From assembly GCA_003427395.1 (NCBI GenBank), contig BFEA01000015.1, positions 5,939,027 to 6,003,026 on the forward strand: DNA of 64,000 nt, given 5' to 3'. Shown one piece after another: positions 8,946 through 46,200 of the stretch; within the stretch, counting starts at the first letter, position 1; each line of letters opens with the position of its first letter. Source of the DNA: Chara braunii. Its lineage: Eukaryota > Plantae > Charophyceae. A program made the translations under genes and the position numbers. The notes beneath the pieces were generated by a model. The model searched no databases and was not told the DNA's origin. It saw only the letters and a program-made list of their open reading frames with translations.

Positions 8946-9166
8946 GAGGCCCTCTCACTGTGAGTTGAGTGCACCTCTCTTGGATCTCGAGAGTCTGACT
9001 TTTCTTTCGCTATCCTTCTNAGTCTAAGTNTGGTCTTTGGTTACGAGAGGAAGGCGGCAGGNGGGATTGCAACCCGTAGGACCGCGCCAAGGCCTCTGTG
9101 GGAGGTTGCCCCACCGATTGCGGGAGCTCTGCCGGGACCNAGGCGGGGTTCTNGAGGCAGAGAACT
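8946..9166 (+). ncRNA. Putative structured cis-RNA element in LTR A (copy at 26494-26714, homolog at 31360-31580)
   Basis: Block strongly conserved with the diverged LTR; helices show compensatory changes (GGCCUC/GAGGUU vs AGACUC/GAGUCU; GGGACCN/GGGUUCU vs GGAACUC/GAGUUCU). Confidence 0.6.
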
Positions 9167-9487
9167 TCAAGTATAACCTCGTTAACCCGTGTCATCCCTT
9201 CCCCTATTTGTTATCCCCTGGGTACCTGAATATGTATATGAAAGGCTATTACCTTTTGTTTTGCTATGTATGTCAGGACATGCTTTGCCTAAAGGTGAAA
9301 TGAACATGTACATATGAGAGATCAGATAACTCTTGAGCGAATTCAGACAGAATGAACAGGGGGAAGGTGGGAGAAAGATGGTTGCATGTGTTTGACCGGG
9401 TCAACCCAAGGTTGAGCTCCTCTTAGCTGATGTGGGCTCAGTGCTGTGTTTTGTTTATGTTTGCTGGGCTGCTTGTATGGTTTTGAG

Positions 9488-16005: not shown

Positions 16006-16212
16006 ATGTTGTACGACTCGTCCCTGGAAAAGCAGTGGTCGCGGAAGTTGGAGAAGAGGTGATTGGGGCCTTACAGGGTCACCAAATGTGGTGAACATGG
16101 TGCCTACCAAATCGAAGAGCTGAATGGGACGGCATGGAAGGACTGGGTGTCAGGCTCGAGGCTAAAGAAGTTTGTGGCTCGAGACGAGGTGAGCAGGGAT
16201 CCCACCACTTAA
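16006..16212 (+). pseudogene. Integrase C-terminal (GPY/F) fragment
   Basis: MLYDSSLEKQWSRKLEKR*LGPYRV...GAYQIEELNGTAWKDWVSGSRLKKF, homologous to element B LLYDAVLERTWSGKLANRWMGPYRV...GAYIIVEL; joined directly to the protease region. Confidence 0.85.
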
Positions 16213-16436
16213 AGTCATCTAGCGGCTACTTCGGGTGCTGCTCTGAGTAGAATAGCGTGATAGGTTGTGGTTAGACTTGCATGTGTATATGACTATGTAT
16301 GCGTATGTGTGTGTAAGTAGGTAGTTGAGATAGGTGTGGGAGGGTTATGTCCATCTCCTGTTGTGTTTTGTCTGACATCACTTACCCTCTCTGTGCTTCT
16401 GTTCGCCTCTTCCCTGTTGTGCAGGCTTGATACCGC

Positions 16437-18725
16437 TTGGGGCAGCCATGCCAAGAGGGAGGGGAGGGGCAGGGCCAGTGGAAACCCCTTTGGGGGAAAA
16501 CCCGACAGAGGACGCAGATGAGGACCTGGAGAGAGGACATGCCTCCAGTCTTCCAGGGAGGGAATATTGAGCTGTTCGTGATGGAGTTCGAGCGGCATGC
16601 GAGAGAGTTTGGATGGGACAGCACCAGGATGTTGAGAGAGGTGCGAGGCACAGGCGAGTGGGCGGACCCTATTGCTAAACTGGTCAGAGAGTNGCTGAGN
16701 TGGCAAGACTTTGGACGGAGGNTGGAGGGTTTGCATNCNTCACCACTGGGAAGGGATGGACNACCCATTCGATTCGACTCCACTAATCTGGGGGAGTTCT
16801 TATGGGCTTATGATCGATATGCGGATGAGCTCTGTATCCCAGGAGAGCAGAGAGTGGGGAGGTTCCTGTTGTTTGTAAGACACGATATCAGACCCTTCGT
16901 ACGATCCATGGTGGCATCTGCCATGAACTGGGGGCACTGCAAGAAGCTGCTATGGAACTATTATACTCCAGCTCGTCAGGCAAGTGAGAGGAGAGGTGTG
17001 GAAAAAAGGAGAAGGGAACCTGAGACAGAGGCGAGGGGAACCTTTGAGCAGGGCTCATCACCAGGGGCTCAGAGGGAGGAAAGGAGGAAGGAACACAAGT
17101 CTCACCGACATGAGAGAGCAGAGGGGTCCGATGGTTCAGATGCACCTCCACAACCTGCTCAGAGGGAGATGGATGGCCCCATGCCTGACGCAGAGTCAAA
17201 CATCCCTCACAAGCCGCATACGCAAGAGCCGAGGGAGGAACCGTCTGTTGATGAAAAGGAGCCGGACAGAGAAGAGAGGGCAGCAAGGGAGCTGGAGATC
17301 AGGACTCAACTCCGAAAGAAGAACCTGGCAAAACTGCATGAGAGGATGCAGTAAGGAAAGGCGCTTGAGGAGGTGGAGGACAGAAAAGGAAAGGGTACCT
17401 GCACTCAGGAGGAAGACCCTCCTCTGTTCTCAGAGGTCTGGATGGGCTTCGATAAGCTGATGGACGCCACACGAAGATCAGGTGGACAACATCAGGAGAT
17501 GGGGGTTAAGTTGGTCTCTACAGACCTGCTCAACCTAAGGAGCGTGATGAGAGAAGGCTTCGCTGCCGCAAGGACCTCAGATCAGAAGATTGGTGACAGG
17601 CTGACAAAGGCGGCACAAAAGGCTTATGGCCAGAGGGTGGACTGGGAGAGAGAGGCTGAGGGCCTGAAGAGGGAGCTGGGAAGACAGGGCAAAGAGTTGG
17701 CAGCAGTAAAGGCGGACATGGAGAGAATCTCAACAGTGAATAAGGCCGTCAGACAAGTCAACCAGACCCTTAACAAGGTCACTGACGCGCTGAGGGCCTA
17801 TTTGTGTACACAACTGACCTTCTTCCAGGTTAAGGAGACTGAGTGGGAGAAAAGGATTCGAGACCTTGAAGCCAAGTATGCCCAACAAGCTTCCACAAGG
17901 GTGGTGGATTGGACAGAGGTCCAGAAGTTCGAAATCAGGGAACAACCTGCAGAGGAGGTCTTCAAGAAGGAAAAGGAAGTGGAGAAGGCAGACCAGCAGG
18001 AGGGTGTGGAGATCCCTCTGATCGACAAAGAGATGTTGGAGCAGCCAGGAGTGCTTGTGGAAAAGGGTGCAGAGGTCGGAGAGTTTGAGTGGAGGTTACC
18101 TGCTCACCTGACACTGGGACACGAGCCGGCAGTACCACAGGAGGGACCACCAGTTGAGGCAATGAGAGCTGAGGAGGTTCCACCTACTATTCGAAAAGAG
18201 ACTGTGGGGCAACAGGAGGGTCAGGAAAGTGTGGGCCAGACCATGGTTGGGACTGAGCGGAGAGTGGACCTGAGGGACTGTCAGGAGTCAACCATGCTTC
18301 AGGAGGTGCCAATTGTTACTGATTTGCGGGATGTACTGGGATCTTGGGCCACTGGGTCTGGGCCAGAGGGGCGTGTTGGGGAGTTGGGGATGCCAGCAGA
18401 TGACAAAGCAGCCTGCCCCGCTTCCTCAGGGGTCCCACAACAGGAGGTTACGAGCAAGATCTCAACAACCCCGTCATCTGTACCCTCGCTGGAAGGAGAC
18501 AAGATGTCCCAGAAGAAGCTTGGCAAGTGTTTTTATTGCAAGAGGGGCAAACATCGATTAGACGACTGCCCCAAGAGCCTCAAGGACGAGGCAAATGGAG
18601 TGTGCACCAGAGAGTCATCGGGGGTATGGAGAGATAGAAATGGATTCCTAGTTCCTAAGACTCGTGATGGGGTGAGGGCGCAGTTGTATAGGCAGCTGCA
18701 GGAGGTCATGAGTGATCAGGAGTAG
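16437..18725 (+). pseudogene. Second Gag-like ORF downstream of pol (two capsid-like repeats, coiled coil, CCHC knuckle), one in-frame stop
   Basis: ORFs 16437-17354 and 17373-18725 are in the same frame; PPVFQGGNIELFVMEFE and PIRFDSTNLGEFLWAYD repeats; CFYCKRGKHRLDDC; polypyrimidine tract and TGCAG acceptor ending at 16424. Confidence 0.8.
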
Positions 18726-20590: not shown

Positions 20591-20663
20591 GCGACGGGGA
20601 CGTCGCTTACTAAGGTCCGGAAAACTGTCGGCCCGAATACCCTTACAAGGGTATTTGGGCACA
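20591..20663 (+). other. Structured module at the 3' LTR boundary in place of a polypurine tract
   Basis: GCGACG-GGGA-CGTCGC hairpin, then TAAGGTCCGGAAAAC, then an LTR-initial fold-back hairpin; equivalent module at 62901-62969. Confidence 0.55.
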
Positions 20664-23600
20664 TTTTCGCAGCGCTCAGGAAGGACGGGCCTGACGATAT
20701 CTGAGGGCGCGCCCCATTTATATTGATTAGAGAGTGTGTGGGCGTGCACTTCGTGGGCACGCGTTAGCCTGACCGAGCCAGGGTCGGGGAAGGCCATGCG
20801 ACGCCGGTAGAACAAGTGTAGAGTTTCTGAGGCGGCCGCAGCCTCGCACATACGAGCGAAGTTACAAGCGGCGTCGCGTTGACCAGGTAGGAGTGTGACT
20901 AAAGAGGAGTGTGGTCCGACTTGCGGGGGACCGACGTATAAAGGCCGTGCCAAGTAAAAGTTACGTGGGCGCTAGGATGCCGCTGCACCAACGATAGTAA
21001 AAGTCGCCACGGGTGCTAAGCAAGGGGGGCACTAAGTAGAGCAACAAGCGGGGTTTCCTCGACCGAGAGGCGGTAGGCAGGCGTCGTGGTAGGCCATGAG
21101 AGGCTCGGCCCGCCGCCCTGCCGTGGTTGAGCCGGCGCGTGTAGTGCGCCGGCGCAGCCGTGCCTTCAAGATTGCCATGTACGGCCTTAGGGAGCCAAGG
21201 ACGCAGGCCGCAGGTGGGAGAAACAACCTGGGGTACTGTTTGCAGGCCCGGGCTGGCTGGCCATACTATCCATATGGAGGATTGCGCCTGCTGCACCCAG
21301 GCTTGGGCTCAGCCCTATTGGTTACGGTGCCAGACTCTCACCAGGCAGATCCCGGGATTGAGGCCAGCAGCAAGCGAGGAGGAGCATTATGGAGTGAACC
21401 GAGGGGTTGAGGGTCCTGCAGGACTATCCCCTTTGGTTTTGCTGAGGGAAGCCAGCCGCGGGCCCGTGAGGGTAGGACCAGGTATAAATGGTCCCCTCCC
21501 TCGTCCCTTTCTTTATGTTTTTTTTTTTTTTTTTTGAGTTGTATTTTTTTTTTTGAGTTGTATTTTTTTTTTTTTCTTCTATTTCTACCTTTTTTTTCTG
21601 GTTTGGGAGGAGGCCCAGTGCCGATGCCGGGACCTGCAGCGAGCCCACCGGCCTAGTTCCGCCACGAACTGCCGGCGGGGGGCTGTTGTCGGAGTATAGT
21701 CCTTCGGGACATCCGTCAAAATTGGAACGGTACCGAGGAGATTAGCATGGCCCCTGCGCAAGGAGGTTATGTATAAAGCCGGGAGCAGCCCGACGTGTTG
21801 ATGTTGCTGTGGCAAGCGGTGGGCTGCCGGCTGCTGTACGGTCCCCCAGCCGAATTGGTCACTGGGCACTGCGCTGTAGAGGCGGGTGGAGCCGAACACG
21901 ACGATAGCTGCGAAGGTGCGAGACAGAGTAAGGTGCTGAAAGGAGAGACTGTACCTGGACACGCAACAGCGTCGGGTGCAGGTGAGGACGGCGACAGTAG
22001 GACAACGGGGAGGACTCGTAAGCGGGCAGGGCTGACTGGGTTGAGCTAGCAGGAAGGGCAGGGTGACACAGCGGGAGTGACCATGCTAGAGCAACAGCAG
22101 AAAAAAAAGAAGCAGGGAACGGGCTGTACCNNNNNNNNNNNNNNNNNNNNNNNNNNNNNNNNNNNNNNNNNNNNNNNNNNNNNNNNNNNNNNNNNNNNNN
22201 NNNNNNNNNNNNNNNNNNNNNNNNNNNNNNNNNNNNNNNNNNNNNNNNNNNNNNNNNNNNNNNNNNNNNNNNNNNNNNNNNNNNNNNNNNNNNNNNNNNN
22301 NNNNNNNNNNNNNNNNNNNNNNNNNNNNNNNNNNNNNNNNNNNNNNNNNNNNNNNNNNNNNNNNNNNNNNNNNNNNNNNNNNNNNNNNNNNNNNNNNNNN
22401 NNNNNNNNNNNNNNNAGGAGTGGAAGAGAGAAAGTTAGCTTAAGAAAGCGCAGCTCCGGGAGGCGGGAAAAAACTGAAATACAAAGACAACAAGAGGTGA
22501 ACCTGGACGCAGTTTCGGGCGAGGTACGTTCAAAAGAGAGAGGGGGAAAGGAGAGTTGGAAGGGATCTAACTTGCTCATTCCTGAACGAAATAGGGTGAG
22601 CCGGACATCGAACCTGGAGGTTCGGGGGCAGGCGACCATGAATCCGAGCTCACAATTGGACGGGAGTTAGGGAATGGTGAGCTAGGTAAGAAATAACGTG
22701 CGCGGAGGAGGCCGGGAGCTATGGGGGAGAAGAGGGTAGTCATCAGATCTCGGCCGTTCCTTGGCCGTTTGTGGCAATCTAAGATGGTAAGTGGGGGTTT
22801 TGAGGCCTTCTGAAGGCATTGGACGAATCAGAATTGTGATCTGAGCAGCGGTTTGGGCGGGTGGAGCGNCAGGGNCTGNGCGACTGTGTGAANCAGCTGA
22901 AGATGGTGAATGCATCCTCCCATGTTCAGGCGGGAGATCCATTNTCGTCNTNCGAGCAACGAAGCGGGCNGACCCTTATGCTGTNCGTTCCTACTCNTAG
23001 TTGAGAGCCGTTCTGCTCAGTTTCGCGCCGCCAGCGAGGTCTCCTCTGACGACCTTGTTGCTCGTTGCGCTATCATAACCGCCTCNGCCGAGGAAGGGCA
23101 GTGACTATGTTATAAGCATNGTTACAAACACTGGTCGAAGTAAAAGCNGTTTTCCTCCATNAGAACCTGCCCCCAACACTCNTCGGCATCNCAATNTTCN
23201 TATGGCATANGGAAGAGAGCCTTGAGGGGGACTTGAGGGGGTGAGGGGAACTCGGCNACGAAGGAAGCACCAAGGGAGAGGAAGAAAGGTCGGAAGCACA
23301 TATAAGGAAGGATGGGAGCTGACGGGGGAAAAAGAAGGAGAAGTTGGTGCATCTGTTGTCGTGGGGAGTCTTCGTANAAAGGGCCGGTNCCGATAGCGCC
23401 CGCGGGTGGGGAGCAACTGCCCATCGCCCTGCTGACTTCCGGTGGACCGATGCACCCGNCCACTTTTCTAGCGGATGGTTCACTCCGAATCCGCTCGTCC
23501 AGCAGATGGGAGTGACGCGAGGACCAGTGGAAGGGTTGGAAGCTTACTTGTTGACCTCGGGCAGTCGGATGCCGAGAGGAAGGCAGGGGAATACGTACCT

Positions 23601-26600
23601 GGACCTCTTCTGCAGGAAGGTCCACTCTCGTCCCTGCCGTTAGTAGGTGGCAGTTGCGGCCCAATCCTGATATTCCGGCATCTCGGTTGTCCCGGAATGG
23701 TCGAAGTTTCACCTTCGACAGACCACGCTGGGTCATGTGCACTAGAGAAGGGAGGTTGGGCTTCCCGGTGTTGCAGGGGTGCTTTTGCTAATTCGGTTGT
23801 TGTGCCCTTTGCTGCCGCAGAGACGGCCAAATGGAGGTCTGGTAAGTAGGGTGTTCAGAGAGTGGCTGCGCCTCACGGTACCACAGCTGCGGTTCCAGCT
23901 ACCGCGACCTTCTTGCTTGGCCCCTGCTGTCGGTGCTGATCCACGCTGCAGCAACTATCACCAGACAGAAGAGGAGGAGGGAAGATCTATCTGGTGGGCT
24001 GTGGGGTCATAATTTCTTTGACGTGCTGCTTATAATTGTTGAAGGGGTGGAAGTTATCGGACTATTGCTGCATGTGCGCCAGGGCCCTAGATTTCTCGTC
24101 CAGACACAGAAGCGGGGTGTCTTGGGTGTTGCAGTCCCAAACCCTATAGACTGGCATACCAGCGAAGGCGGCTGCTACGGGCTGCTCCTGACTTGCTGGA
24201 TGGTAGTTGGACCATCTGAGGTAAGCACTGTACACAATGCTGACTGTGTACTGCTGTGCTACTGGGCATCCTGCCTCAAGCGGCATACGGGCTATTCTGG
24301 TGCACAACATTGGAAGGGTTTTGGTGAACTCCTGACTGTCACGATGCCATCGATGTGACTGCTGAAACGTGGGCTACTACACTACATTTCCGTTGTGTAT
24401 TGTTGGGTCTCGAATAGGCTACGAAGCTGTATCAAAATTAAACCCGGACCTGTCTGCCAGTGACTGCCACATTCAACAACGTCACATANTTGGACAAGCT
24501 TGATGAAGAGAGAGAGTGTCTGCGACATGAATGTGGAATGTTTTTCGTCCTTCAAGTCTGATCCGATTAATTGAGTAGTGTGGGCTNGCTTCTGACAGCC
24601 TGTGTGTGTGGACCGTGGTGGGCTGTTTTTCTTTCTCCCCCCTCCCCTCGTGAGTGGAGTGGCGGTANTTACCTNAGGCAGCATGGTCCGTAATCACATC
24701 AGAAATTTNTTTTAATAGGTNTGTTCGCTGCGGTGTATCTGCCTATCTCTTNNTGGAAGATTCCCTCTCATATTGCATAACTGACAGGCCGGATAGACTG
24801 GGCACCTCCAAAAGCTATAACTAGAACTGAAGGAATAGGGGAGAGNGGAGGAGACTCCCAAAAATTTAGGTGGAAGTGTTGACGACGAGGGTGGGACTCT
24901 TGGAAATTCTTGGTGCCAATTGACTTGGGGAGAGACAGTAGTTAGATCTAATTTTTGTTACAGATTGTACTTTCGACGTTAAGTGCACCCGCTGTGTACC
25001 CTCGTCGCCAGGCTCAGGTGGCAGTGCCCCTCATGATTGTTATCTTGAATCCCAACCTTGCCTCATTGGGACTGTCACAAGGAGGATCACTATCTTTGAC
25101 CTGAGCTGGTGGGCCAGCTAAGTGGTGAGTACTAGGTAGCTGGCATGAGTGCTTGGTGTAGTGCTACTGCAGGCCGCGGGGTCTATTCGGTGGCAATACA
25201 TCTGTAATCGGGACTGATCAGTGAGTTGCTGCTGTCTAAGTATTGTAGATAAGTAATATATATATATTTTTTTCTTTCCTTTTTTTTTCTTTTTTTTCCT
25301 GATATCTTGATGTAGGCCGCAGTTCCAGCATTGGCCTGTTACTAAGGACAGTGCGGTGTTAGAGGCCAAGACAGAGGCAGGGGTTTTGAAGGGCACTGCT
25401 TAGACTTGAAGGGGTGTTTGTCTTAGCGGCAGCGACTGCCATCACCAAGGGCCACTGTTTTTTCTAAGAGCGGTACAGCAGGGCAGCGAGCTGTCAGACT
25501 GCTGCTGTAAGGCTACTGTACTACTGAGTTGCTGCTCCAGTACTTCGGTGTGTTCCAACTGTGTACCACTGTGGGTTACCAAGCCCCCGTTGAAGTGCAC
25601 TGTATACTATGGCCAGTTGGGGGAGTCAGGAAGCCGNTGTAGGTCACTGAGGTTCGGACTATTGCAAGTACAGCCCCCTCTCTCAATCTACGGGGGCAGT
25701 AGCGACCCATTTTCGATATCATCAATAGGGTCGTTCACCGTCCGCCTTGTCGCCAGGCCCGACAAGTCGTGGTGCCACCCTAGCGGGCGGTACACTATCA
25801 CGCTGATTATATGNGATCGCTGCGAGGAAACCAGTCTGTTGGAAATCGACGGCGACTATTGCATTGAGTAAAGCCAGGGTGTGCTCTGTTCAAACGTAGC
25901 ATTCTTGTGACTCAGAGCAGCAGTTCGGACGGAGGGGGACCACCGGGAGGTGGCGGTTCCCAGCAGCAGGCTGTGGGGAGTTTTTGGGTAGCTGCTGTAG
26001 CATCTTTGTTGGAAATATTACAGTAGCTACCACTACTGTTGAAAAGAGCTGCGGAGCCACCTTGTGTTAGGCCTGGTATGCTGCTGTAGTTTCGCTGAAG
26101 GGTTTCGCTGTGCGCGTGGTTGTCCACTAGCTCTACACGACTGTGTACTGAGGAACGGGGGCAGCCATAGCACCAGGACTGTGTCCTCCAGAGGCTGGGG
26201 GCTGTATAAGCGTTAAGAGTGCTATAGTGGATTAGTTACCAGCGTTGTTGCAGGTTATAGCTGTGTTGTGCACCATTCTGAACGCTGCCGCAGTGCAGGG
26301 CGTTGTTCGGCACTGCTGTCGTGCAGAGCACTACTCATTGTTGTGCGCCATTCCTGTTCGTTCTTACGGCGGGGTCGTTACGGCGACTAAGGAGGTTGGC
26401 AAGGGACTGTCATTCTACATTTTGGCCGCAAGTTGGACACCTTCACTGNGCTACTGGCCACCATTGCGGGGCCCTCAGGCGTATCGAGATGACGAGGCCC
26501 TCTCACTGTGAGTTGAGTGCACCTCTCTTGGATCTCGAGAGTCTGACTTTTCTTTCGCTATCCTTCTNAGTCTAAGTNTGGTCTTTGGTTACGAGAGGAA

Positions 26601-29600
26601 GGCGGCAGGNGGGATTGCAACCCGTAGGACCGCGCCAAGGCCTCTGTGGGAGGTTGCCCCACCGATTGCGGGAGCTCTGCCGGGACCNAGGCGGGGTTCT
26701 NGAGGCAGAGAACTTCAAGTATAACCTCGTTAACCCGTGTCATCCCTTCCCCTATTTGTTATCCCCTGGGTACCTGAATATGTATATGAAAGGCTATTAC
26801 CTTTTGTTTTGCTATGTATGTCAGGACATGCTTTGCCTAAAGGTGAAATGAACATGTACATATGAGAGATCAGATAACTCTTGAGCGAATTCAGACAGAA
26901 TGAACAGGGGGAAGGTGGGAGAAAGATGGTTGCATGTGTTTGACCGGGTCAACCCAAGGTTGAGCTCCTCTTAGCTGATGTGGGCTCAGTGCTGTGTTTT
27001 GTTTATGTTTGCTGGGCTGCTTGTATGGTTTTGAGGGCTGGGCCTATCCTAAGTTGGACGGACCAGCCGCTGTTTTTTTCTGGGGTTTCTGAATAGGAGG
27101 ATGGGCACCCTAAGTTGGGATGTCTCAGAATCCTGGTGTTTTTTTTCTATGGGTTGCTGAAAACAGGACTGGGAACACTGTTAAGTTGTGTGGACTCAGT
27201 TCTGCGTGTTTTTTTTTTCTGGGGGGGAGCACCGGCATGAGGCTGAGCGTACCCTTAAGTTAGGGCGGTTCAGTCATAAGCCACGAACATAATGGTCAAT
27301 CTCAAGTATACAATTTTGATATATACCATGCGAACCTATACCATCTGGCAGGCGGGACACCCTAAGTTGGGAAAGCCAGTCAGTAAGTCAGGTAGAACAA
27401 TAAGAGGAGAAAAGCAATGAAGAATATAATGAAGGTAACCTGGGCAGGCTGAGCGTACCCTTAAGTTAGGGCGGCTCGGTCCTATGCTCGTAATAAGACA
27501 AAGGATCAGCGAGTTAGTATGAACTTGTTTTATTTTTCCTTCTAAATACGAGGCAGGGTTGGATGTCTCCCTAAGTTGGGTAGGTCTGATCATCTGTCTA
27601 ATAAGAGAGAAACACAAAGTTTGTGCATGCATCAATGGTGTGGTTTTCATATGATTGTCGTTACGGAGGCTAAGCGTACCCTTAAGTTAGGGCGGCTTAG
27701 TCATATGTCGTTGTGCTTTGTTCACGCAGATTCTGTCTTATGTAACTATATTGTTTAGGCCAGCCAGGCGTACCCTTAAGTTAGGGCGGCCTGGTGATAG
27801 GCTCTTGTCGTTGATGTGATGTTGGTTGGACGTACCCTTAAGTTAGGGCGGTCTGACCATTCGTCGTTCGTGCTTGTTCTAGGCAGGTTAGGCACACCCC
27901 TAAGTTGGGCCGGTCTGACCATTCGTCGTTCGTGCTTGTTCTAGGCAGGTTAGGCACACCCCTAAGTTGGGGCAGTCTAATCCTATGCCCTATGTAACTT
28001 GTGTAAGGCTGGCTAGACATACCCTTTAGTTAGGGCAGTCTAGTCTTATGCTTCATGTCGTCAGTATAAGCTGAAGCCAGGCATACCCTTAAGTTAGGGC
28101 GATCTGGTCATATGCTTTATGACTAAAGTTTATCTGGAGTTGGGCATACCCTTGAGTTAGGGCAGTCCAGTTGTGCGTACCTTGTTTATTTAGGCAGGTT
28201 GGACATACCCTTAAGTTAGGGCCTTGTCTGATCCTATGCCATAAGTGAGGGGGTTATTGAAAGGGAACAACTGAGTGATCTAANGAACTACCTGGGNAAA
28301 TGTATGTGGNATTGTGAGAGATGCATGCTCATGTATGATTGTAGGGTCTCACTTGGGGTGTCTTTTCGATAGGTTAGTTGCTTTAGATGCTCGCCAAGTG
28401 CTGGAGCCATAGGTAGGTTAGATGGATGTCGGGAGGGAAACTTGGGATGAGGATAGGACTGGCCCTGCAAGGGGTTAGGCCCAANNCTAGCCCATGGTCT
28501 CTTCCAGAGGTTGTGTAAGCCGTCATTGATCNTGATTCATCAAGCAGGCGTCAGTAGTTAGTCCCAAGTGTAGTTGCTTTGTCTTTCTGTTTTTTCAGCT
28601 TTGTATAAATCTTGGTAGCCTCCTGTTCCTACTGGAAGCGCTGCCGAAATTTTTANAAATCTGAAAGGGTTAGTCATTTTTGGGTCTTAGAAATTATGAA
28701 AAGGCACTTTTCCTANGGGAAGCGCTGCCTAAATTTCGTGAAATTTAGGGAGTTAGAATATTTTTCAGTTAGAAGTTACTTAGCAGATCCTAACTGATTA
28801 GAGGAGGTGTTCAACTAATTGGTANTAGTAGAGGAGCTAGAGTACGACTAAGGGGAATAATCTCCCCTTGACACAGACGTAAGTACTACTCTTCGTTGGC
28901 CTGTACTATGATGCAGGTTGCTGTGCTATCACTTGAGAGCCTGATTTGATCAGGTCATTCCTTCAGAGAGATTATTTCTCTGTTACCACTGATAACAGGT
29001 CGGTTGCCGAATCGTCGGTCTACGACTCAACCCCAATTCACCCTCAATACTCAGCCTAAAGAGGCTTTAGCCATGGTGATTTTATCTGTTTTGTTAAGGT
29101 TTCACCCAGACTTTTATTGAATGGCCATTTAACAGAAGTACTGAGTACTTACTTATGGTTGGTTGGCTGGAGGTTGGGGCTTGCATGACTAAAGCACAGG
29201 GTATGAGTGGGGAGGTTGGTTGGAGTTGACCCCGTGTTGCGTGGGGATCTTTGCTTGATTCTGTGATGTGATTGCAGGTATGTATGGAAGAGTATCATCT
29301 GAGTTATGTTGAGTGATCGTGTCTTGGATTGAGATGGGCAAACCACATAACTGTCGTGAGAGTGAACTACCCCACAACTTGGTGTTTGAGTAAGAGGGTT
29401 TTATTCCCGTTTTGCTGAAGTGGTAACCTATGTAAGTGTACGTTCGGGTAACCTCTACAGGGCTAGTCCCGACAAGGCCTCGTCTAATGAGATTAGGGGT
29501 ACATATGTTATCCTTGTTTGAATTTATTTTGGTGGGACGATAAAGATCCGGGCGGAAGGGTTAGCGTGTCACTGGTGATGCGCCAAACAACTCACCACCG

Positions 29601-30351
29601 CTCTAAATTCCTTCCTGACCTAGGGGCCGTCTTACCCCGCACCCTTTGGGGCAACCCTCGAAGTTATCAAGGGCCGCAAGGCTACGAGTACACCAGAGTA
29701 CCCCATCAGCGCGAATGCTTGCAAATAACCAAATGGCTGGTTGTCATGAGGAGGCCATGCGCTCGCTCGACTCTTATACGGAAACCCAGCGCGCGACGCC
29801 TATCTGGTTCTGTTGCGTAAAAGTATGGGTTGGATACTGAAGGGACTAGGAGTTGTGGTGTTGTGGCGTTGTTTGTGGCGGCCGTTCTGTGTGTGTTTCT
29901 ATATGTTATGAGTGGGTAAGTATGAGTATCGTGGTGTAGCGCGTGGTGAGAGTAGTGCGTCCTGGTCGACCGGCGTCGAATCGTGTCTTTGATTTCAGGC
30001 CCTCAGTATGACGACTCGCGCACGGGTTCGATTTCGGGCGTTCGACCGCGCGTACCCCCTATGCTACAGCGAGCGAGAAACGCCCTCGGCTGGGCCACCT
30101 CTGCAATTGCATATGAAAAGCTTTCGTATGTGGTTAAGTAGCTCGGCAGGGATACACCCTCCTAAGGGATGGTGACAGCTCCCGCAGGTGGAGGTAGCGG
30201 TGCCTCGCATGACTCTGTCCTGTCGTAGGGGCTCGCGAGAGGTACGGCTGGCGCACTCGGCCTGAGCGGCAAACGCTCTCCGCGACAAGTCCTGCATAAT
30301 CCTGTGTGACGCGGCCGGGAGGGTCCCCGTGCAGGACCGATGCGCTCGACA
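20626..30351 (+). repeat. 3' LTR of element A (contains N gap 22131-22415)
   Basis: Begins TGTCGG, ends GCGCTCGACA; direct repeat of 3275-12803. Confidence 0.9.
27036..28240 (+). repeat. Second copy of the 16-hairpin array (3' LTR)
   Basis: Matches 9488-10692 at offset +17548. Confidence 0.9.
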
Positions 30352-33300
30352 GCGGGATCAGGGAAAGCCAAGTAGTAGGTAGGGGTTCTAATGGTGGGCG
30401 AACCTAGTTATGAAGTCAGTTCTAGAATAAAGTTAGTAAAAAAAGAGGATAGCAAAGAAACGGGCGCGAGGGAACGATGAAGTTGGAAGCACGAGCATGA
30501 ATGAGGGAGTAGAGTATCGGCGGAAGTAGAGAGAGGAGAGTAGGGAGATAACACGTACCTGGTCGACAAGAAGCCATTGCGGGGTGAACCGAAAGCCAAG
30601 CTACGAGGACAAGCTGCGTGGAATACTATTAAAGGCAAGTCGGGGAAAAAACAACATCTGGCTGCATATTTTCTACAATATAGCGGAAGATTCATTCTGA
30701 ATTGTCTCATCCCTTTGAAGCGCAGCAGCAAGGAAAACTGGTCACAGGATTGTAGACTTACCTTTTGGCCGTGCGCTGCTCATTCCGTTGGATCGAGGAG
30801 TGAGCCGTAGGGCCCTGACACTTACTTGCTGACGGATGTGCTGCTCACCCTGTAGAACGGAGGAGCTGCAGGCGAACTGTGAGCTTGAAGACTTACTTGT
30901 TGGTTGGTATACAACTTATTGTACTGATTAGCACAGCTACAGACAAGGTGTGAGATGCGGGCTTGTTTTGCCAGTCGGTACGCTGTTCGCTGCCGGGCGG
31001 AGGAAATGAAAATGGGCAGCGAGACAACAATCCTACCTACGAGGCGTGAGCAACTTGCCTCATTGGAGTGGTGAGGTAAGGAGCGGGCTATAGAGAGAGG
31101 TGGATGAACTTGTGATTCACAACCCATGTCTTAAGCAGGGGTCGAGACATTTCAAACCGTCAGTATTGCAGGGGTTGTTGGGAATTAGAGGTCGTTTGGG
31201 AGTTAACGACAGACAGTTGGACCCCTGTTTGACCAAGTAGTTGTGCATTTTGGTCGCCAATGCGATTTGGAGGACAGTCTGGGTGAGGGTACTCTGCGTT
31301 TTGATTATGGTTCGACCATCCTTGCTGCGTTTTGACCACCATGGTGGGACCCTCATTGCAAGGCCCTCTCCTGCGAGTTGAACTGCCCCTCTCTTATATC
31401 TCGAGTGTCTGAAACCCCTACTTTTGCCCTTCTCACTCTAAGTCGAGTTTGTTGATTCTGAGAGGAAGGCGGCAGGTGGGATTGCAACCCGTAGGACCGC
31501 AGCAAGACTCTGTGGGGAGTCTGCCCACTGATTGCGGGAGCTCTGCCGGAACTCAGGAGGAGTTCTGGAGGCAGGGAACTGAGAGGTAACCTTTCATGTC
31601 CTTCTATAAACCCAGTTATAACCCTTATCTGTATTCCTTGTTATGTTTTGACTGCGTATACTGTGTGCATCCCTACTTTGATGTTTCAGCTCGACTTTCG
31701 GGACACGAACCAGACTAAGTAAAGGAATGTATGTGCAATGTCAGTTCCAGTTTCATTGTTTGACTGAAGCAGATTGTGGGATTGTATCTGGGGGGAAGGA
31801 TGGGAGGAAGGTTGTATTGGATGCGTTTGACTGGGTCAACCCAAGGCTGGGAGATTCTCCATAAGATTGGAGGGCCCAATGCTATGTTTATTTTCGATTA
31901 CCTGAAGCTCCAGACATGTTTCCATAAGTTTGGGTAGTTTGGTTGCTTTGACTTGCAAGGGCTGTTTGTGTTTGACTTTCAGGGACCAAGCATTTTTCCA
32001 TAAGATTGGATGGCTTTGTCGCCTTGTTTCGTTGGGATTTCTGATGTTTATTAGTTTCTCTCTTGATTATTTTGAAGGGAATTCAGGCGAAGGGCTAGAC
32101 ATGTTCTTATAAGATTGGGAGGTCTGATCTGGAGCTGTGCACATGCTTGAACCAAAAGGTTAAATCTGTTTATATTCTATACTACTTACTTATGAACATG
32201 CTAGTCATACATTTTTCTATAAGATTGGATGGTCTGACTATAGCTTATTACCAACTGAAAAGAGTATGAATACAAAATAAAAATGGTGGTAAGAAGGGAC
32301 AGGCTGAACCTTGATCTAAGATGACCGGTTCCGTTATATGTTATCTTAAAAGACAAAGTGCAGATAGTTACATATAACTTGGATACGTAAATGGTTCAGT
32401 GCGACTAGACTGAATGACCTAGTCATGTGCACAAAGAAGAGAAAAGTTGTAGTACCCTGTGTTTGTGTATATTCTATGACTAAGCTAGATAGGTTCCCAT
32501 AAGATTGGGTGGTCTAGCTTTATGCCTTATGTAGGCTAGTATAAAGGGGATAAATCATTGAAAGATCATGAACTACTGTTTGATAAGGTTGACTTTAGGA
32601 TGGTGGGAGTACTTACCTTTGTGGTTTGACCTGCATGTGGCTGAGTGAAATTACTACTTAGTTTGAGTTTCAGTTTGATAGGTAATTGTTTTAGTTGCTC
32701 CCCACGTGCTAGAGCTATAGGAGTTAATTTTAATTCGTACATTTTGTGAGCTAAGTTTTTTTTACTTTAGATCAATTCTCGCATTTTCTGGGATCATTTG
32801 TTATATTTGGCTTTGTATAAATTTTGGTAAGCTACTTTCTCTACGGGAAGCATTGCCGAAATTTCTGCAAATCCAAGAAGTTAGTCGAAATTTGACTTTT
32901 CAAAGTTCAACTTGTCTGATTTTTATTTATGGCTTAATAAAAATATGGGAAGTCTCATTTTCTAAAAGGAGTGCTGCCCAAATTTTTACCAATTCAGGGA
33001 GTTAGATAAAATGACTTCGGAAAGTTGAAGACTATTTCTGTTTTCATATTCAGGCTGATATAAATTCTGAAAAGACACTTTTCTTACGGGAAGCGCTGTC
33101 GAAATTTTTGTAGTGTAAAGGAGATAGATTATATTATATTTCGACAGGTGGCGATTCTGGTAATCCACCCTGCATAGGGGAGATACTGTCAAAGGTCCAC
33201 CTTTCTTTGGACACTGACTTAAAGATAGACCTAGGGTTGGTTATCAGGATAGTCTTGAATGAGAATGTATCATTGACCTGTCTTATGATACAAACCTTCT

Positions 33301-33670
33301 TTGGATATTCGATCCAGGATTTGGACTAGTTTCAGCTTTATCCTACGAGGGTCGTCTTCTGTTATCACTGATAACAAGTCAGTTGGTTGATCGGCGACTC
33401 GTCGGCTCACAATACAACTTTGCTTACACCTGTACCTCAACTCGATTGCCTTAGTCTTGAGATTCGATATGTTTCTTTGAGGGTTTTGACCAGACTTCTT
33501 TTATTGGCCATTATAAAGAACTTCTGAGGTTTAGGGAAAATTGAGTTATAACTGGGGTTTGAGTGTAGTTGACCACATTGGTGTATGGCAATGTAGCTAA
33601 TGTGTGTGGCTGTGTTTTCTGCAGGTTAGTATTTTGGAGTGTACCTTGGAGATAGTGAGAATGACAACCA
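30352..33670 (+). mobile_element. Older related LTR, right part (end not resolved)
   Basis: 31360-33640 is collinear with LTR A 8946-11740: structured block, TTTGACYGGGTCAACCCAAGG, hairpin array, GCGCTGCCGAAATTT motifs, CTGTTAYCACTGATAACA. Confidence 0.75.
31843..32525 (+). repeat. Homologous hairpin array with TAAGAT loops (about 7 units)
   Basis: CCA-TAAGAT-TGG type units with loops near 31862, 31925, 32001, 32110, 32220, 32317, 32500 and pairing lower stems (e.g. AAGCTAGAT/GTCTAGCTT). Confidence 0.8.
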
Positions 33671-33740
33671 TGTGTCGCACGATCTGCATACGTGATGGGT
33701 TTATGTTTCCCCTTCTTTTATTTTATCTCGAGTTCTGATT

Positions 33741-34093
33741 TGATATATAAGTGTTGGGATGTTTATATATTTATTGATTGATTTTTCTTGTTAATTTTTA
33801 TAGTTGGACATTGTCGGGACCGGTGGGTCCCGAGACAAGTCCTGACCCCCGAGAGATAGTATATGGCAGAAGTGTGCGCAACAGAGAAAACCAAAGGCAA
33901 GAGAGATATGAAAAATGATATATAAGTGTTGGGATGTTTATATATATTATTGATTGATATTGCTTGTTAATTTTTATAGTTGGACGTTGTCGGGACCGGT
34001 GGGTCCCGAGACAAGTCCTGACCCCTGAGAGATAGTATATGGCAGAACTGTGCGCAACAGAGAAAACCAAAGGCAAGAGAGATATGAAAGATG
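33741..34093. repeat. ~176-bp tandem duplication, each copy with a GC-rich hairpin
   Basis: Two near-identical copies; TCGGGACC-GGTG-GGTCCCGA within 33806-33842 and 33982-34018. Confidence 0.85.
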
Positions 34094-34639
34094 AAAGGTT
34101 AAGGCATAAGTGCCGGCGTCTAGGGTCCTAAAAAATGCCCTGGGTCGCCGGAACCAGTGAACCAACAAGAAATTAGTAGGATACTAAGTGACAAAGGGCC
34201 GCAAAAGAATAATTAAAGCGACCCTTCTTCCTGAAAGAAGGAGTGCCGGAAAAAATAATGTAAGGAGTCAAGGAGGTCAAGAAAATAGTGTTGGGGCACC
34301 GACACGTGAGAACGGAGCACGGGGCCAAGGGGGCCACCTGAAGTGCGACATAAGAAAGGCCAAAGGGCTATGAGCTAAGTAAAGAGCCGCGGCCGGTTAA
34401 ACCGGCACGCGTGGGATATAGAAAGAGATTAAAAATGAGATAGCCATGGGGAGGAAAGTGCCAAGAGAAACTGGGATACTGCAAGGAAAAGTGTCGAGGA
34501 CCATAGGGGACTAAGTAAAAATAATAATATTTTGGGGCCAAGTACCTGTGGGACCACCAGCGGGACAAGTGCCGGCGGGGCCACGAGTGAGACAAGTGTT
34601 GGGGACTAGCGTGGGACAAGTGGCGGGCAAAACGGGAGG

Positions 34640-38029: not shown

Positions 38030-39866
38030 CAAGTCTCACTCACATGCAACTCGCTCTCCCAATTGGTGATGTACCGGTCCCTTGCTAGTTGCTCCATAGC
38101 ACATGTGTGTGTATGCTGTAGGTTCATTTGTCCAAGTTCAGTCTTTCTCTCACTTGGTGATGTGGCAGTGCTTTCCTAGTTGCTCCATTGCTCATTTGTG
38201 TGTGTGTTGTAGTCTCATTGGTGCAAGTTTAGTCTTTCTCTCACTTGTTGATATGTTGGTTTCTTCCTAGTTGCTCCGTAGCTCGTGTATGTGTGTGTTG
38301 TAGTCTCATTGGTGCAAGTCCAGTCTTTCTCTCACTTGGTGATGTGCCGGTTTCTTCCTAGTTGCTCCATAGCTCATATGTGTGTGTTGTAGTCTCATTG
38401 GTGCAAGGTCAATCTTTCTCTCACTTGGTGATGTGCCGGTTTCTTCCTAGTTGTTCCATAACTCGTATATGTGTGTGTTGTAGTCTCATTGGTGCAAGTT
38501 CAGTCTTTCTCTCACTTGGTGATGTGCTGGTGCTTTCCTAGTTGTTCCATAGCTCATGTATGTGTGTGTTGTAGTCTCATTAGTGCAAGTTTAGTCTTTG
38601 TCTCATTTGGTGATGTGCCGGTCTCTTCCTAGTTGCTCCGGAGCTCATGTATGTGTGTGTTGTAGTCTCTTTGGTGCAAGTCCAGTCTTTCTTTCACTTG
38701 GTGATGTGCCGGATTCTGACTAGTTGCTCCATAGCTTCATGCATGTGTGTGTTGTACTCTCATTGGTGCAAGGTCAGTCTTTCTCTCACTTGGTGATGTG
38801 CCAGTTTCTTCCTAGTTGCTCCATAGCTCATGTATGTGTGTGCTGTAGTCTTTCTCTCACTTGGTGATGTGTCGGTGCCTTCCTAGTTGCTCCGTAGCTC
38901 ATGAATGTGTATGTTGTAGTTTCATTGGTGCAAGTCCAGTCTTTCTCTCACTTAGTGATGTGCCGGTTCCTTCCTAGTTGCTCCATAACTCATGTATGTG
39001 TGTGCTGTAGTCTCATGGGTGCAAGTTCAGTCTTTGTCCCAGTTGGTGATGTACCGGTTCCTTCCTGGTTCCTCCATAGCTTGTGTGTGTGTATGTTGTA
39101 GGTCCATTTGTCCAAGTTCAGTCTTTCCTCACTTGGGGACGTGGCGGTGCTTTCCTAGTTGCTCCATAGCTCATATGCGTGTGTGTTGTAGTCTTGGTGC
39201 AAGTTGAGTCTTTTTCTCACTTGGTGATGTACCGGTTTCTTCCTAGTTGCTTGATAGCTCACATGTGTGTATGCTGCACTCTCACATGTGCAAGTTCAGT
39301 ACTTCCTCACTTGGTGATGTGGCGATGCCTTTCTAGTTGCTCCATAGGTCATGCATGTGTGTTGTAGTCTCATTGGTGCAAGTTCAGTCTTTCTCTCACT
39401 TGGTGATGTGTCGGTTTCTTCCTAGTTGCTCCACAGCTCATGTATGTGTGTGTTGTAGCCTCACGGGTGCAAGTTCAGTTTTTCTCCCACTTGGTGATGT
39501 ACCGATTCCTTCCTAGTTGCTCCATAGCTTGTGTGTGTGTATGTTGTAGGTCCATTTGTCCAAGTTCAGTCTTTCCCTCACCTGGGGATGTGGCAGTGCT
39601 TTCCTAGTCGCTCCATAGCTCATATGTGTATCTTGTAGTCTCATTGCTGCAAGTTCAGTCTTTCTCTCGCTTAGTGATGTACCGGTCCCTTCCTAGTTGC
39701 TCCATAGCTCACATGTGTGTATGCTGCACTCTCACATGTGCAAGTTAAGTCCTTCCTCACTTGGTGATGTGGCGGTGCCTTTCTAGTTGCTCTATAGCTC
39801 ATGTATATGTATGTTGTAGTCTCATTGGTGCAAGTGCAGTCTTTCTCTCACTTGGTGATGTACCGG
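38030..39866. repeat. ~91-bp satellite, ~20 copies, interrupted by element B
   Basis: Unit gtctttctctcacttggtgatgtgccggtttcttcctagttgctccatagctcatgtatgtgtgtgttgtagtctcattggtgcaagttca; starts at 38141, 38232, 38323 and onward. Confidence 0.95.
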
Positions 39867-41490
39867 TGTCAGGCGGCCGCAGACGGTTGGCCACCCGACA
39901 TACGAGGTATTCGTCTCTCAACCGAACGTCCGGTTAGGATTTGTTGGGTACTCTTGTCGGGACCGTCGAGGAAAATTAGGGGTCGGAAAAAGGGCCCTAA
40001 AATTCCCTCGATCGATTATGAAAACTGACCCTTGAAATTAACAAAATGAACAGCCACGCCCGCCGCCCCTAACACCTACCGTTTTCATTCGTTCCAAGGT
40101 TGTTCCCAATGCGGCCGACCATGGAACCGGGATACGGTGCTAGGCCGTGGCGCGCTCCTTTCACACTGGACAATTGACGAGGGAAATGGGCCAGCAATTT
40201 TCGCCGATTTAATAACCAAATCAAAATTGAGAAAAAGAATTAAAAATAATAAAAGGGAAGAAAATAACGGAATATTTGTTACTTGATTAAATTTTATCGG
40301 AAGTTATCCTTGGTAAAATTATCCTTTATTTTTATTAATTTCAATATCAAAATTAATAGTGCATAAAAGAATTAAAATAAATAAATAAATGATTAATTAT
40401 TATTTGATTAATTTTAACGGAATTTACTCCTGATCTTGGGAATTATTTAATTATCCGGAGTCCGTTGATCCGTGCGAGTTCCGATGGCTATGAACCCACG
40501 CTTGATTTTGCCTCTGTATGACCCCGATGTTATTGAGTGAGCCGGGTTGTATTCTGCTGGATTCTTATTGTCTTTGATTATATTGACGGTGAGATCAAAC
40601 AGACCGGTTTACGGTTCACAGCAGCCGGTCAGATTGGTGTAGTTACTGGTCCAGCGTTGACGAGATTCATGGTGGTATGGTAGTCACGCTGGTTGGCACG
40701 ACAATTGGTCCGCGGTTCGGTACTTTTGCTTGGTACGGTCACTGACTTAGCATTTACATAGTATTGGAACAGTGTATTGCAACCTGATCTCATTATTCTG
40801 GTTGATCACTGGTCCAAAGCTGGTACGCCACACTTGTTGCTCGGTATGGTATTCAACATTGGATTGATGCGGTTACAGGGCTGGTACTTGCACGACACAC
40901 GTTTTGTCTGCTTCGGTATTCGGCCTGGGTGGGGATTCCCGCTGCCTACTCTTGCTGATGGTATTATTATGATATGATCGTGACTTTGCGGCATCTGCTG
41001 GTTTGGTACGGGGACGGTTCACATCGGGTTGGATATCATTATTGCTTGGTTCGACATTGAGGCCTGACGCGATGATGTTGATGAGGCCTACTCTCATTCA
41101 GGTACGGCCACTGGTCCAACTCAGGTACGGTACAGGATTCGTTGGATACGAATGTCGCGGCTCATCTGTGTAATACGGATTGCTAGCAGACCACTGTAGG
41201 CTACAAGAATTGGTCCGGACGCGTTATACCTTGCTGGAATTACCGGTGCATTCCCTGTTGGTATCGCTGGGCCTACATGGGTCCCAGTCCACTGGGCCAT
41301 CACTATACTGGACCTGTGAGCCCGGGTTTTGCTGCTACCTTCGGTCCGCTGAGGCCTACGACCAGTGCGGCAGTCCGCATATAGCCAGAGCAGATTGGAG
41401 TTTTGAAGCAAGCATTTTCTCGCACGTGCTAGGCGTACGCAGCCCACTACCAATGTTACTGGACAGCGAGAGGGAAGAAGCTCGGTTCTC

Positions 41491-43277: not shown

Positions 43278-46200
43278 GGGCTGCCGCAGGAGAGAGAGGG
43301 AGCAGGGAGCGTCGCAGGGAGCGTGGAGCGGAGCGGAGCGGCGCTGGTGCTGCGACGAAGCTAGAGCAGCAGCGTAGCACGTTCAACGACGGTGGCGAAT
43401 CGACATGCGCGGCCCCGATTGACGCCGTTGAATTTTTAATTCAACGACGTTAAACGCGATTGCACGCGTTTGAACACGTTTGAAGGGCGTTCAACGCGAT
43501 TGAACGTGTGGGGCCGGCGGGCGTTTGCCGGGGTTCAGCGGCGTGCGCNNNNNNNNNNNNNNNNNNNNNNNNNNNNNNNNNNNNNNNNNNNNNNNNNNNN
43601 NNNNNNNNNNNNNNNNNNNNNNNNNNNNNNNNNNNNNNNNNNNNNNNNNNNNNNNNNNNNNNNNNNNNNNNNNNNNNNNNNNNNNNNNNNNNNNNNNNNN
43701 NNNNNNNNNNNNNNNNNNNNNNNNNNNNNNNNNNNNNNNNNNNNNNNNNNNNNNNNNNNNNNNNNNNNNNNNNNNNNNNNNNNNNNNNNNNNNNNNNNNN
43801 NNNNNNNNNNNNNNNNNNNNNNNNNNNNNNNNNNNNNNNNNNNNNGGGGGGGGAGTGGGGTACTGGGGGGGGGTGTGACGGAGTTGGGGGAGGGGGGACC
43901 CTGCGACGGGCAGCGGTCGACGGGCGTTGGGTTGCAGCGGTGCGCTCGGAGAGAGTTAGCGAGGGTTGTCTCGCCAGGGCGGTCGGCATGGGGAGGGCAC
44001 AGCGCCGCCAGCGTGAGCCTTCCCCAGACCATGTGCAGGACACATTCAGGGCCTGCTCCCCTGGGCATCGGTACCTGGTTATCGGCTAGAAGGTCGACAA
44101 CAAGGGGTTCATGATGCTTCGTTGCACGTTTTGCAACAAAGTTTTCCAAGGGACCCAGTTCCAGGCCACGAGGCACTTCACACAGACGAAGTACTGCAAG
44201 GACGTCAGCGACGAGGCGCTGTATGAGATCGCGCAAAAGACTCAACAGAAGTTCGAGGTCGATCAGATGGAGAGGGTCGCCAAGTATGCAGCGGAGCGCG
44301 GACTCGATGTGCCCGACACGGGTGGTGCAAGGGGAGGAGAGGCGGGGCGGCGTCCGGTGGAGGGAGGGGTTGGGGGAGATGGTGGTTATGGTGCGCCAGA
44401 CCACCCGTTGGGGGGTGGAGGCGGTGACACGGAGGAGGGCGTGATCGACCTTGATCGCGAGGCGTGTGGCCTGGGCGAGGAGGGAGTCCCTGAACAAGAG
44501 GACGTTTCAGAGTTTTATCTAGGCACTGCGGAGAGGATGGAGGATTGGCTGAGGCGACCAGGCAAGGGACCTGCAACGGAGGGGTCTTCCAAGAGGAAGG
44601 AAGGAGGAACTAATCCGGCTGCTACCCCAGTTGGAAAGAGGCTTCGCCAGCAGAAGGTGACTGAGGTCTACGGTGGCGAGTGGGTTGCTCGCCACAAGAA
44701 GGCCTTCCTTTGCTGGCTCTATTCCAGCGGGGTCTCCTTCAATGCCTTCCGCAACCAAGCTTGGAAGGCATATGAACAGTTGCTTCTTGAGCAGCCTGGC
44801 AGTTCCCTGCGCGCTGTGCCAGCGAGATTGCGAGTATGCGGGCGGTGGAGACCCACCGTGCAGAGCCGGCGGAGGAGTTGGAGGAGGTGAGGCAGCCATT
44901 CTGGGTGATTGGTGCCACCCTCCTTCCGACGGGAGGAAATCATGAGACGGGAGACCGATCGTGAATTTCCTTGCCGCTGGCTCGCGAGGGGTCGTCGTGT
45001 ACACAACGATCAATCGAGAGGGCGAGCCGGACGATGCAGTGCACGTCCTTCGGAGATGGGTTACCATCTTCCACGAGTTCAGGTTCGGCGGCCCGCAGCG
45101 GGTCAATGCGATATGCGCTGACTCCGCTTCTGCGTACGTGGGGGCTGCCAGGGCATTGGCCTCGCCGACCATGCCTCTTGCACCGAGGAGGATCACTTGG
45201 CTCTCGTGCTCAGTCCATGTCTGCAACAAATTGTTGTCTGACATGGGGACGAGTTGCGACGCGTTTGTCGACGCTATCACACGCGCTCGTGTGCTGGTGG
45301 TGTTTTTCAAAACCCACTAGACCGCCCTTCATTTTTTTAGGAAGCGCAGCCCCAACAAGGGGCTTATTCTTTCTTGCGAGACGCGGTTCGCGTCTGTTTA
45401 TTCCATGCTAGAGAGGCTGTTGGCCCTGCAGGACACTTTGCAGGACATGATGCGAGGGGATGACGCGCGGGCTTTGGCTTCCATCCCGTGGTCCGCCGAT
45501 GTGTGGATTATGGCGCGTTGGGTGCACCGACAGATCAGATGGGATCCTTGGTGGCAGAGGGTGGCCACCATCGTCCATATCATGCAGCCTGTCATGGAGT
45601 TGCTTAGGCGGATGGATCGTGGAGGACAGTACATGTCCCTCATGATCGAGTGGACACAGGATCTTGTCCGTCGTGTCACGGACGCATGCGCTCCTTTGGG
45701 GGAGTCGTTCGTCGACCGGATCATCAGGCGTGTGCAGGCTCACACACAACACATGCTTGAGCCGGCTCACTGCGCAAACTGAAACCCCGCAGGCGACACG
45801 TTCGCTAGTTTCCAGGCGAGGTTGATCGGTACCATGCTTGGCTCGTGGGGCAAGCCAAGAGGTACATTCTGACGCATACGGGTTTCAAGTTGGAGGGTGC
45901 GGAGTACATCCTTGCATGTTGGCAGTTTGAGGACTTCGACATTCAACACGGCAGGTTTGGGGATTGGGGCGGGGCGGGGCGGAGGGGCGTCCTCGTGGGC
46001 GCGCGTGCAGCGGCGACGGCGAGACGATTTCGTGCGCGTCTTGGTGGTCTCAGTTCGGGGCTGGCGCGTCAGAGTTGCAGCGGTGTGCTCTTCAAATGAT
46101 GCACATGTGGTCTTGCGCCTCTCCAGCGGAGAGGAACTAGGCAGTCCACGAGGGCATCCACACGAAGAAGCGCAACCAGTTGGCCTTCGAGAAGGTCGTT

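Follow-up and report, generated by a model that had tools for sequence, protein, structure and literature searches.

A conserved hairpin array in a Chara braunii long terminal repeat with features of sense-strand RNA structure

We observed an array of short hairpins (array B) in a long terminal repeat, LTR B, of Chara braunii. The array lies at 31845-32519 on the + strand of the window, the 64,000-nucleotide stretch of DNA that we analysed (contig BFEA01000015.1, positions 5,939,027 to 6,003,026), and comprises six clear hairpins and one degenerate hairpin. Our data support selection on these hairpins as sense-strand RNA structures. Array B is real and structured, has natural variants between families and has apparently not been described before. 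The best explanation, to which we give somewhat less than even confidence, is that it would serve as a multivalent docking site on a genomic RNA leader, read via an invariant loop by a Gag knuckle for packaging, and that the differences between LTR families would be tolerated variants homogenised by unit recombination.

The loop was UAAGAU in six of the seven array B units and UAAGUU in the remaining one. In each clear unit, a 5x2 internal loop separated an upper stem of 4 bp from a lower stem of ~8 bp, and an A-U pair closed the loop in all six. Unit 1 (31845-31881, +; loop UAAGAU at 31862-31867, A-U closing pair) folded with z -2.2 and a closing-pair probability of 0.96. Unit 2 (31908-31944, +) carries the UAAGUU loop at 31925-31930, with an A-U closing pair and the 5x2 internal loop. 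Unit 3 (31984-32020, +; UAAGAU at 32001-32006) reached z -2.8. The closing-pair probability was lower in unit 4 (32093-32129, +; UAAGAU at 32110-32115; 0.38), where G-U pairs in the upper stem weaken the hairpin, and in unit 5 (32203-32239, +; UAAGAU at 32220-32225; 0.33). Unit 6 (32302-32335, +), the degenerate one, was read from the sequence and has UAAGAU at 32317-32322, a C-G closing pair and a differing upper stem. The best preserved was unit 7 (32483-32519, +; UAAGAU at 32500-32505; -17.0 kcal/mol, z -3.3).

We searched with a fixed unit rule that asked for a UAAGWU loop on a 4-bp upper stem, the 5x2 register and no fewer than 5 of the 8 lower pairs. The rule found six units in 31801-32560, and more than one unit in 0 of 5000 dinucleotide shuffles. 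Elsewhere in the window it found two units on the remaining + strand and none on the entire - strand. The 14-nt cores were 83% alike between array B units and the flanks 28-29% alike. As a whole, the 771-nt array B region folded no better than its shuffles (z -0.78). A covariance-model search of 26500-34200 returned no Rfam family at gathering score; its sole match was at chance level (22 bits vs 99) and lay outside the arrays. An unbiased scan of the window's + strand for repeated hairpin loops gave no additional array. On the - strand, a weak cluster of repeated hairpin loops was seen at 45905-46240. Our searches of the open-access literature, a scope outside which subscription papers (the genome paper among them) and supplements lie, brought up no description of such a hairpin array from LTRs of Chara.

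The window is repeat-rich, and the gag homologs of its elements were all from Chara braunii (14/14). Part of LTR B (31310-33528, +) shows homology, at 60-80% identity, to the 3' half of the LTR of a second element, element A. Positions 31310-31894 match LTR A at 8884-9456 (67%, E 9e-53), where the match stops just 5' of the hairpin array of LTR A (array A). Positions 32797-33528 match 11031-11597, just 3' of array A. Because the two matches bracket array A, the position of array B is homologous to it; the first-pass annotation had described about seven units at the homologous position, in agreement with our six clear and one degenerate. We found no coding region beside LTR B and no adjoining gag, and only one end of this LTR could be identified. 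This copy of LTR B is an older, decayed member of its high-copy family.

A putative 5' piece of LTR B lies at 1311-3274 (+), in which 1311-1343 aligns with the beginning of LTR A at 85% over 34 nt. Because of this match to an LTR start, LTR B is possibly the insertion target of element A. Element A may thus have inserted into LTR B and split off 1311-3274, with an imperfect target-site repeat. The flanks of element A (1311-3274 and 30352-31310) match in only three of four bases. We also noted that 30352-31320 is low-copy and the array side of LTR B high-copy, and that several imperfect short repeats occur at 536-1300, upstream of the putative LTR B start.

Alignment of the two LTRs showed two further conserved parts. 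A polypurine run with a TTGAC inverted repeat (31790-31846, +) stands directly before the array in LTR A and LTR B; the inverted repeat follows the run at 31832-31846 in LTR B and at 9392-9406 in LTR A. A structured segment at 31400-31590 (+) is also common to both and ends at a donor-like GAG/GTAA (31585/31586). Together with its counterpart at 8990-9175 it is the most conserved part of the LTRs, with three predicted hairpins and two compensated pairs between the families.

Element A has paired LTRs, TG...CA ends and a primer-site-like sequence, as is characteristic of a Ty3/gypsy LTR element. Its 5' LTR (3275-12803, +) is 9.5 kb long with TG...CA ends, and the primer-binding-site-like sequence follows 12805. 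Its 3' LTR (20626-30351, +) is paired with the 5' LTR; 146 contigs leave the reference at 30351, and their flanks are unrelated. Of 42 N positions in 4878-12804, 41 are common to both LTR copies. Because these positions coincide, most of the LTR pair is one assembled sequence used twice. Array B is N-free and far from LTR A, so the annotation was right in holding it independent of this assembly collapse.

Element A has a broken gag, with an RG-rich stretch and one CCHC knuckle that contains a Trp, and a protease (together 13141-16010, +). It lacks reverse transcriptase, RNase H and the greater part of the integrase, leaving a deleted pol beside gag and protease. An extra ORF follows pol (16431-18725, +). 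Its N-terminal part has two Gag-like stretches and its C-terminal part a CCHC knuckle, and it is a second candidate reader of the hairpins. All 22 homologs of the extra ORF were from Chara braunii, and in some cases their locus tags adjoin those of gag homologs (g3685/g3687, g41601/g41598). Its atlas matches scored 0.85-0.89, below 0.9, and give a lead only. Within Chara braunii, homologs were 43-92% identical for Gag and 49-87% identical for the extra ORF.

Array A lies at 9480-10690 (+) in the 5' LTR, with 16 hairpins of which 14 have a UAAGUU loop; the 3' LTR copy (27030-28240, +) is not independent of it. Ten of the 16 units have a 3x2 internal loop, and the distal units are tandem copies of 62-64 nt. 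All 23 units of arrays A and B fit the loop U-n-A-G-n-U, with positions 1, 3, 4 and 6 invariant (23/23). The annotation had proposed that the closing pair flips from U-A in LTR A to A-U in LTR B. The A-U side of this proposal stands (6/6 clear B units, 0/16 A units), but array A is not uniformly CCCU/AGGG, its closing pairs being U-A in nine units, C-G in six and U-G in one. The larger structural difference between the arrays, absent from the annotation, is the internal loop, 5x2 in B and 3x2 in A.

We next consider selection on the hairpins as RNA. The covariation alignment was made from the 10 array A units (of 16) that have the 3x2 register and from six of the seven array B units, the degenerate one being left out. 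Stem cells were paired at 96.7% in array A and 88.9% in array B; slid registers dropped to 17-56%. Cells changed on both sides numbered 14 in array A (5.0 in shuffles) and 12 in array B (4.6 in shuffles), with 0 of 500 shuffles as high. Lower stems vary and still pair, as annotated, and all four stems quoted as examples are present. The changes in the lower stems were almost all transitions. Ordinary decay predicts A-C cells as frequent as G-U cells, but we counted 23 G-U and 4 A-C cells in the lower stems. With column make-up kept, lower-stem A-C cells numbered 2 against 10.7 expected in array A and 2 against 7.3 expected in array B. A hand count of distinct column-and-type events that included the upper stems gave 12 G-U and 3 A-C. 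Because the units share ancestry and their registers were set on the very sequences counted, neither these figures nor the shuffle counts are clean probabilities, but their direction is consistent and points to the + strand. The depletion of A-C, the retention of G-U and the covarying stems together favour a sense (+) strand RNA structure over DNA decay or a DNA palindrome.

Relatives of LTR B in public runs were aligned to it at 80% likeness, relatives less than 80% alike falling outside the counts. Units 1-3 were profiled from one DNA study and one RNA study (1086 + 1145 contigs, 164 + 8 reads). The alignment depth of relatives peaked on the hairpins of these three units. Positions varying at 15% or more made up 2 of 42 in the cores and 13 of 65 in the spacers (p 0.043; units 1-3). 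By hand reading of units 1-3, 10 of 11 lower-stem variant letters paired with the majority letter of the partner. Four stem mismatches were private to this copy, those positions being paired in at least 93% of the relatives' depth. Conserved secondary structure in the sense-strand RNA, which is expected of a packaging signal, is thus seen in the covariation, in the A-C depletion and in the conservation among relatives.

The closing pairs of units 1-3 showed no variant at 15% or more in the 1086 + 1145 contigs. In unit 1, neither loop nor closing pair had such a variant, and clipped RNA reads show UAAGUU with an A-U closing pair there. At unit 2, loop position 5 was U in 81-87% of the relatives' DNA depth. 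A accounted for 19% in run X1 and 13% in X4, and was carried by 10 of the 85 X6 reads and by none of the 6 X7 reads; part of this A signal may stem from other units aligned there. U is the family state at this position. In unit 3, clipped DNA contigs carry UAAGUU with an A-U closing pair. Joints in relatives revealed units deleted and duplicated in other copies, so that unit recombination can yield concerted change without a co-evolving partner.

These data bear on the idea of a loop switched from UAAGUU to UAAGAU as a family-specific recognition code. The switch holds for six of seven units in this copy. It is not family-specific, given more than 80% U at unit 2 in relatives and UAAGUU at units 1 and 3 in some of them. 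Concerted family change is borne out for the closing pair and the internal-loop geometry, but not for the loop letter, both loops co-occurring in this copy and in its relatives. Because loop position 5 is mixed within family B, a self/non-self code in the loop letter is not supported, and the claim of a switched recognition loop was overstated. Random mixing of variants within arrays had been named as an observation that would speak against the code. Mixing does occur, in the closing pairs of LTR A and the loops of LTR B, and in part agrees with that observation, but it follows unit position and is not random.

We also assessed transcription of LTR B in public RNA runs. Sense poly(A) reads from relatives piled up on 31442-31563 (58 vs 3 and 135 vs 1 in stranded runs X5 and X7). 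Depth over array B was ~1-4 in X5 and X7, in mixed direction. Run X6 was symmetric on 31442-31563 and leaned to the opposite direction over array B. Almost no reads were 99% alike to this copy, and the RNA reads are therefore no evidence that this copy is active. DNA relatives diverge directly after the GAG/GTAA site (31585-31589), and clipped ends of RNA reads lie at 31587; both fit a putative splice donor. No RNA joint was listed for splicing over array B, and two clipped-read motifs had no above-chance match in the window. The segment at 31400-31590 is likely the start of a transcript, and array B probably lies within the transcribed leader, possibly in an intron. The presumed leader of element A is ~4.1 kb long and holds 90 ATG triplets.

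The packaging reading would work as follows. The array would sit in the long transcribed RNA leader of a Chara-type Ty3/gypsy element. A reader would see a loop of the invariant form U-n-A-G-n-U whose G would be exposed; CCHC zinc knuckles with a Trp bind unpaired G in loops. The candidate reader would be the element's own Gag zinc knuckle, a CCHC known here from the sister element A, and Gag binding to the array would select genomic RNA for packaging. The A-U closing pair, the 5x2 internal loop and the frequent A at loop position 5 would be tolerated variants spread by unit recombination, and not a strict self/non-self code. Against this reading, the array is inside the LTR and upstream of the primer-binding site, and no gag is linked to LTR B. 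In retroviruses the packaging signal is usually found downstream of the primer-binding site. The RNA depth over the array, low and mixed in direction, likewise speaks against this reading.

In a rival reading, which follows the annotation's proposal, the arrays would be modular RNA address labels: the hairpin type of each LTR family would co-evolve with that family's own zinc-knuckle reader (Gag or extra ORF), and families resident in one host would thereby sort self from non-self RNA. We consider this unlikely. Such a code would rest on the closing pair and internal loop rather than on loop position 5. The A-U closing pair is uniform in the clear B units, without a common variant at the three tested in relatives, and absent from array A. 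The 5x2 and 3x2 internal loops likewise separate the families, and B units with unrelated flanks share the change. The range of identity among Gag and extra-ORF homologs also indicates that diverged readers exist within Chara braunii. However, both loop letters occur within family B, the closing pairs of array A are mixed and unit 6 of array B closes with C-G. Unit recombination alone gives concerted change, and no protein is linked to LTR B.

A second doubtful alternative, judged about as probable as the address labels, is a host RNA-binding protein that would read the hairpins for export, stability or splicing control of the unspliced 4-kb leader RNA, by analogy with the RTE/MTE of mouse IAP/MusD. 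One slow-changing host protein would fit a loop core common to diverged families. The long, ATG-rich leader of element A and the position of the array 3' of a donor-like site, where it may mark unspliced RNA, point the same way. The available part of one review describes such export elements for other LTR elements (PMC12786077). Yet no RNA joint was listed over the array, the clipped-read motifs lack an above-chance match in the window and no Rfam family matched.

We regard DNA-level sites as improbable. Here the hairpins would be inverted half-sites for a transcription factor or for an anti-silencing protein coded by the element. The core is a spaced inverted repeat within an LTR and differs between families, as do, in the portions available of these papers, Sirevirus palindromes (PMC4728375, PMC2829016) and VANC targets (PMC5735166). 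Lower stems that change yet stay paired, with G-U kept and A-C depleted on one strand, are unneeded for binding of double-stranded DNA. Moreover, the loop is conserved here and the array follows the sense-RNA segment, whereas Sirevirus palindromes, as described in those portions, conserve their arms more than their centre and precede the TATA box.

The notion of a neutral relic, one inverted repeat duplicated repeatedly and then decayed by ordinary transitions, is very improbable and already largely refuted. It would account for the near-exclusive transitions in the lower stems, for the tandem 62-64-nt copies in distal array A and for a region that, as a whole, folds no better than shuffles. 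It does not predict the shortage of A-C relative to G-U cells, nor cores that are alike between random flanks. A closing-pair change between families requires two transversions, and the mismatches at four stem positions are private to this copy. By reasoning only, we also rejected dimerisation through kissing loops (self-complementarity is absent from both loops), U1 decoys (UAAGU equals donor +2 to +6 without the +1 G, and the match is broken in UAAGAU), telomere-box sites (TTAGGG occurs in some A units only) and small-RNA precursors (the stems are too short).

Searches beyond Chara gave no related array in what they covered. A 22-nt anchor common to both LTRs had no match in metagenome, prokaryote-genome or viral contigs. 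A three-unit pattern occurred in 2 viral and at least 123 metagenome stretches, and among the matches listed (125 loci) none matched the window. One of these 125 listed loci, with at least three loop-closed units, was an unrelated repeat.

Other features of the window were noted. A 91-bp satellite of ~20 copies occupies 38055-39867 and is cut at 39868 by an LTR of another family, a second copy of which is at 62937. A lone CCCTAAGATTGG at 53273-53284 lies in the leader of a Ty3/gypsy element that is unrelated, and is no more than chance would give (0.54 expected). In region 44090-48645, a set of broken ORFs shows a BED-like Cys/His motif together with repeats rich in Gly/Ala. They had no Pfam match; by their likeness, they probably belong to a decayed DNA transposon.

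Little is known of how LTR retrotransposons of the plant lineage label the RNA that they package or export as their own. According to the available part of a review, direct export studies in plants have not yet been done (PMC12786077). A covarying, repeated hairpin with natural loop, closing-pair and bulge variants, together with two candidate knuckle readers, opens this question to tests with small synthetic RNAs. Should the families indeed discriminate, the arrays would show how many related elements share one cell without cross-packaging. Subfamily address labels, if true, would parallel the VANC arms race at the level of RNA and offer orthogonal hairpin-protein pairs that occur in nature.

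We compared the array with known systems, each described here from the part of its literature that was available. Like the Gag-read packaging signals of retroviruses and Ty1, the array would be a structured cis element near the RNA's 5' end in a reverse-transcribing element, with a Gag nucleocapsid as candidate reader. It differs from them in that 7-16 short hairpins, nearly identical to one another, are distributed across 0.7-1.2 kb within a very long LTR and thus upstream of the primer-binding site, and is known here from sequence. The UUYYGU hexaloops of coronavirus SL5 resemble it in being a repeated hexaloop with fixed and tolerant positions and variable stems in the 5' region (PMC10705266); a packaging role for SL5 is, in the sections available, proposed and unproven. 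SL5 belongs to another virus class, has another loop and bears two or three loops on one junction, in contrast to a dispersed array.

Sirevirus LTR palindrome arrays (PMC2829016, PMC4728375) share multi-copy inverted motifs in plant LTRs that differ between families and members and can form hairpins. As described there, those Ty1/copia palindromes are CpG-rich, conserve arms more than centre, lie upstream of TATA and act as DNA cis-regulators and siRNA hotspots. Our array instead has a conserved loop and stems that covary with a sense-strand G-U bias. Its invariant loop and variable lower arms, and the lack of a CGG-CCG core, exclude it from the Sirevirus palindrome type. VANDAL/VANC target repeats are a model for the annotation's idea, being tandem motifs that diverge with an element-coded reader. 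In the text available, they belong to a DNA transposon, with experimentally shown DNA binding and no RNA structure (PMC5735166).

The RTE/MTE of IAP/MusD (PMC12786077) and the CERV of Cer1 (PMC10309623) share a theme with the array, in that structured cis elements or an extra element protein handle unspliced LTR-retrotransposon RNA. These are single complex structures in animal hosts, likened here by description and not by sequence or structure comparison. Like our array, the tandem arrays of Retand are variable and occupy non-coding parts of Ty3/gypsy elements in plants, but they lie mostly between pol and the 3' LTR, and the main text of that paper, as far as available, does not mention stem-loop, hairpin or packaging (PMC11963269). 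By analogy, the array likely resembles multi-copy packaging-type stem-loops in its working, and we propose it as a candidate member of that class.
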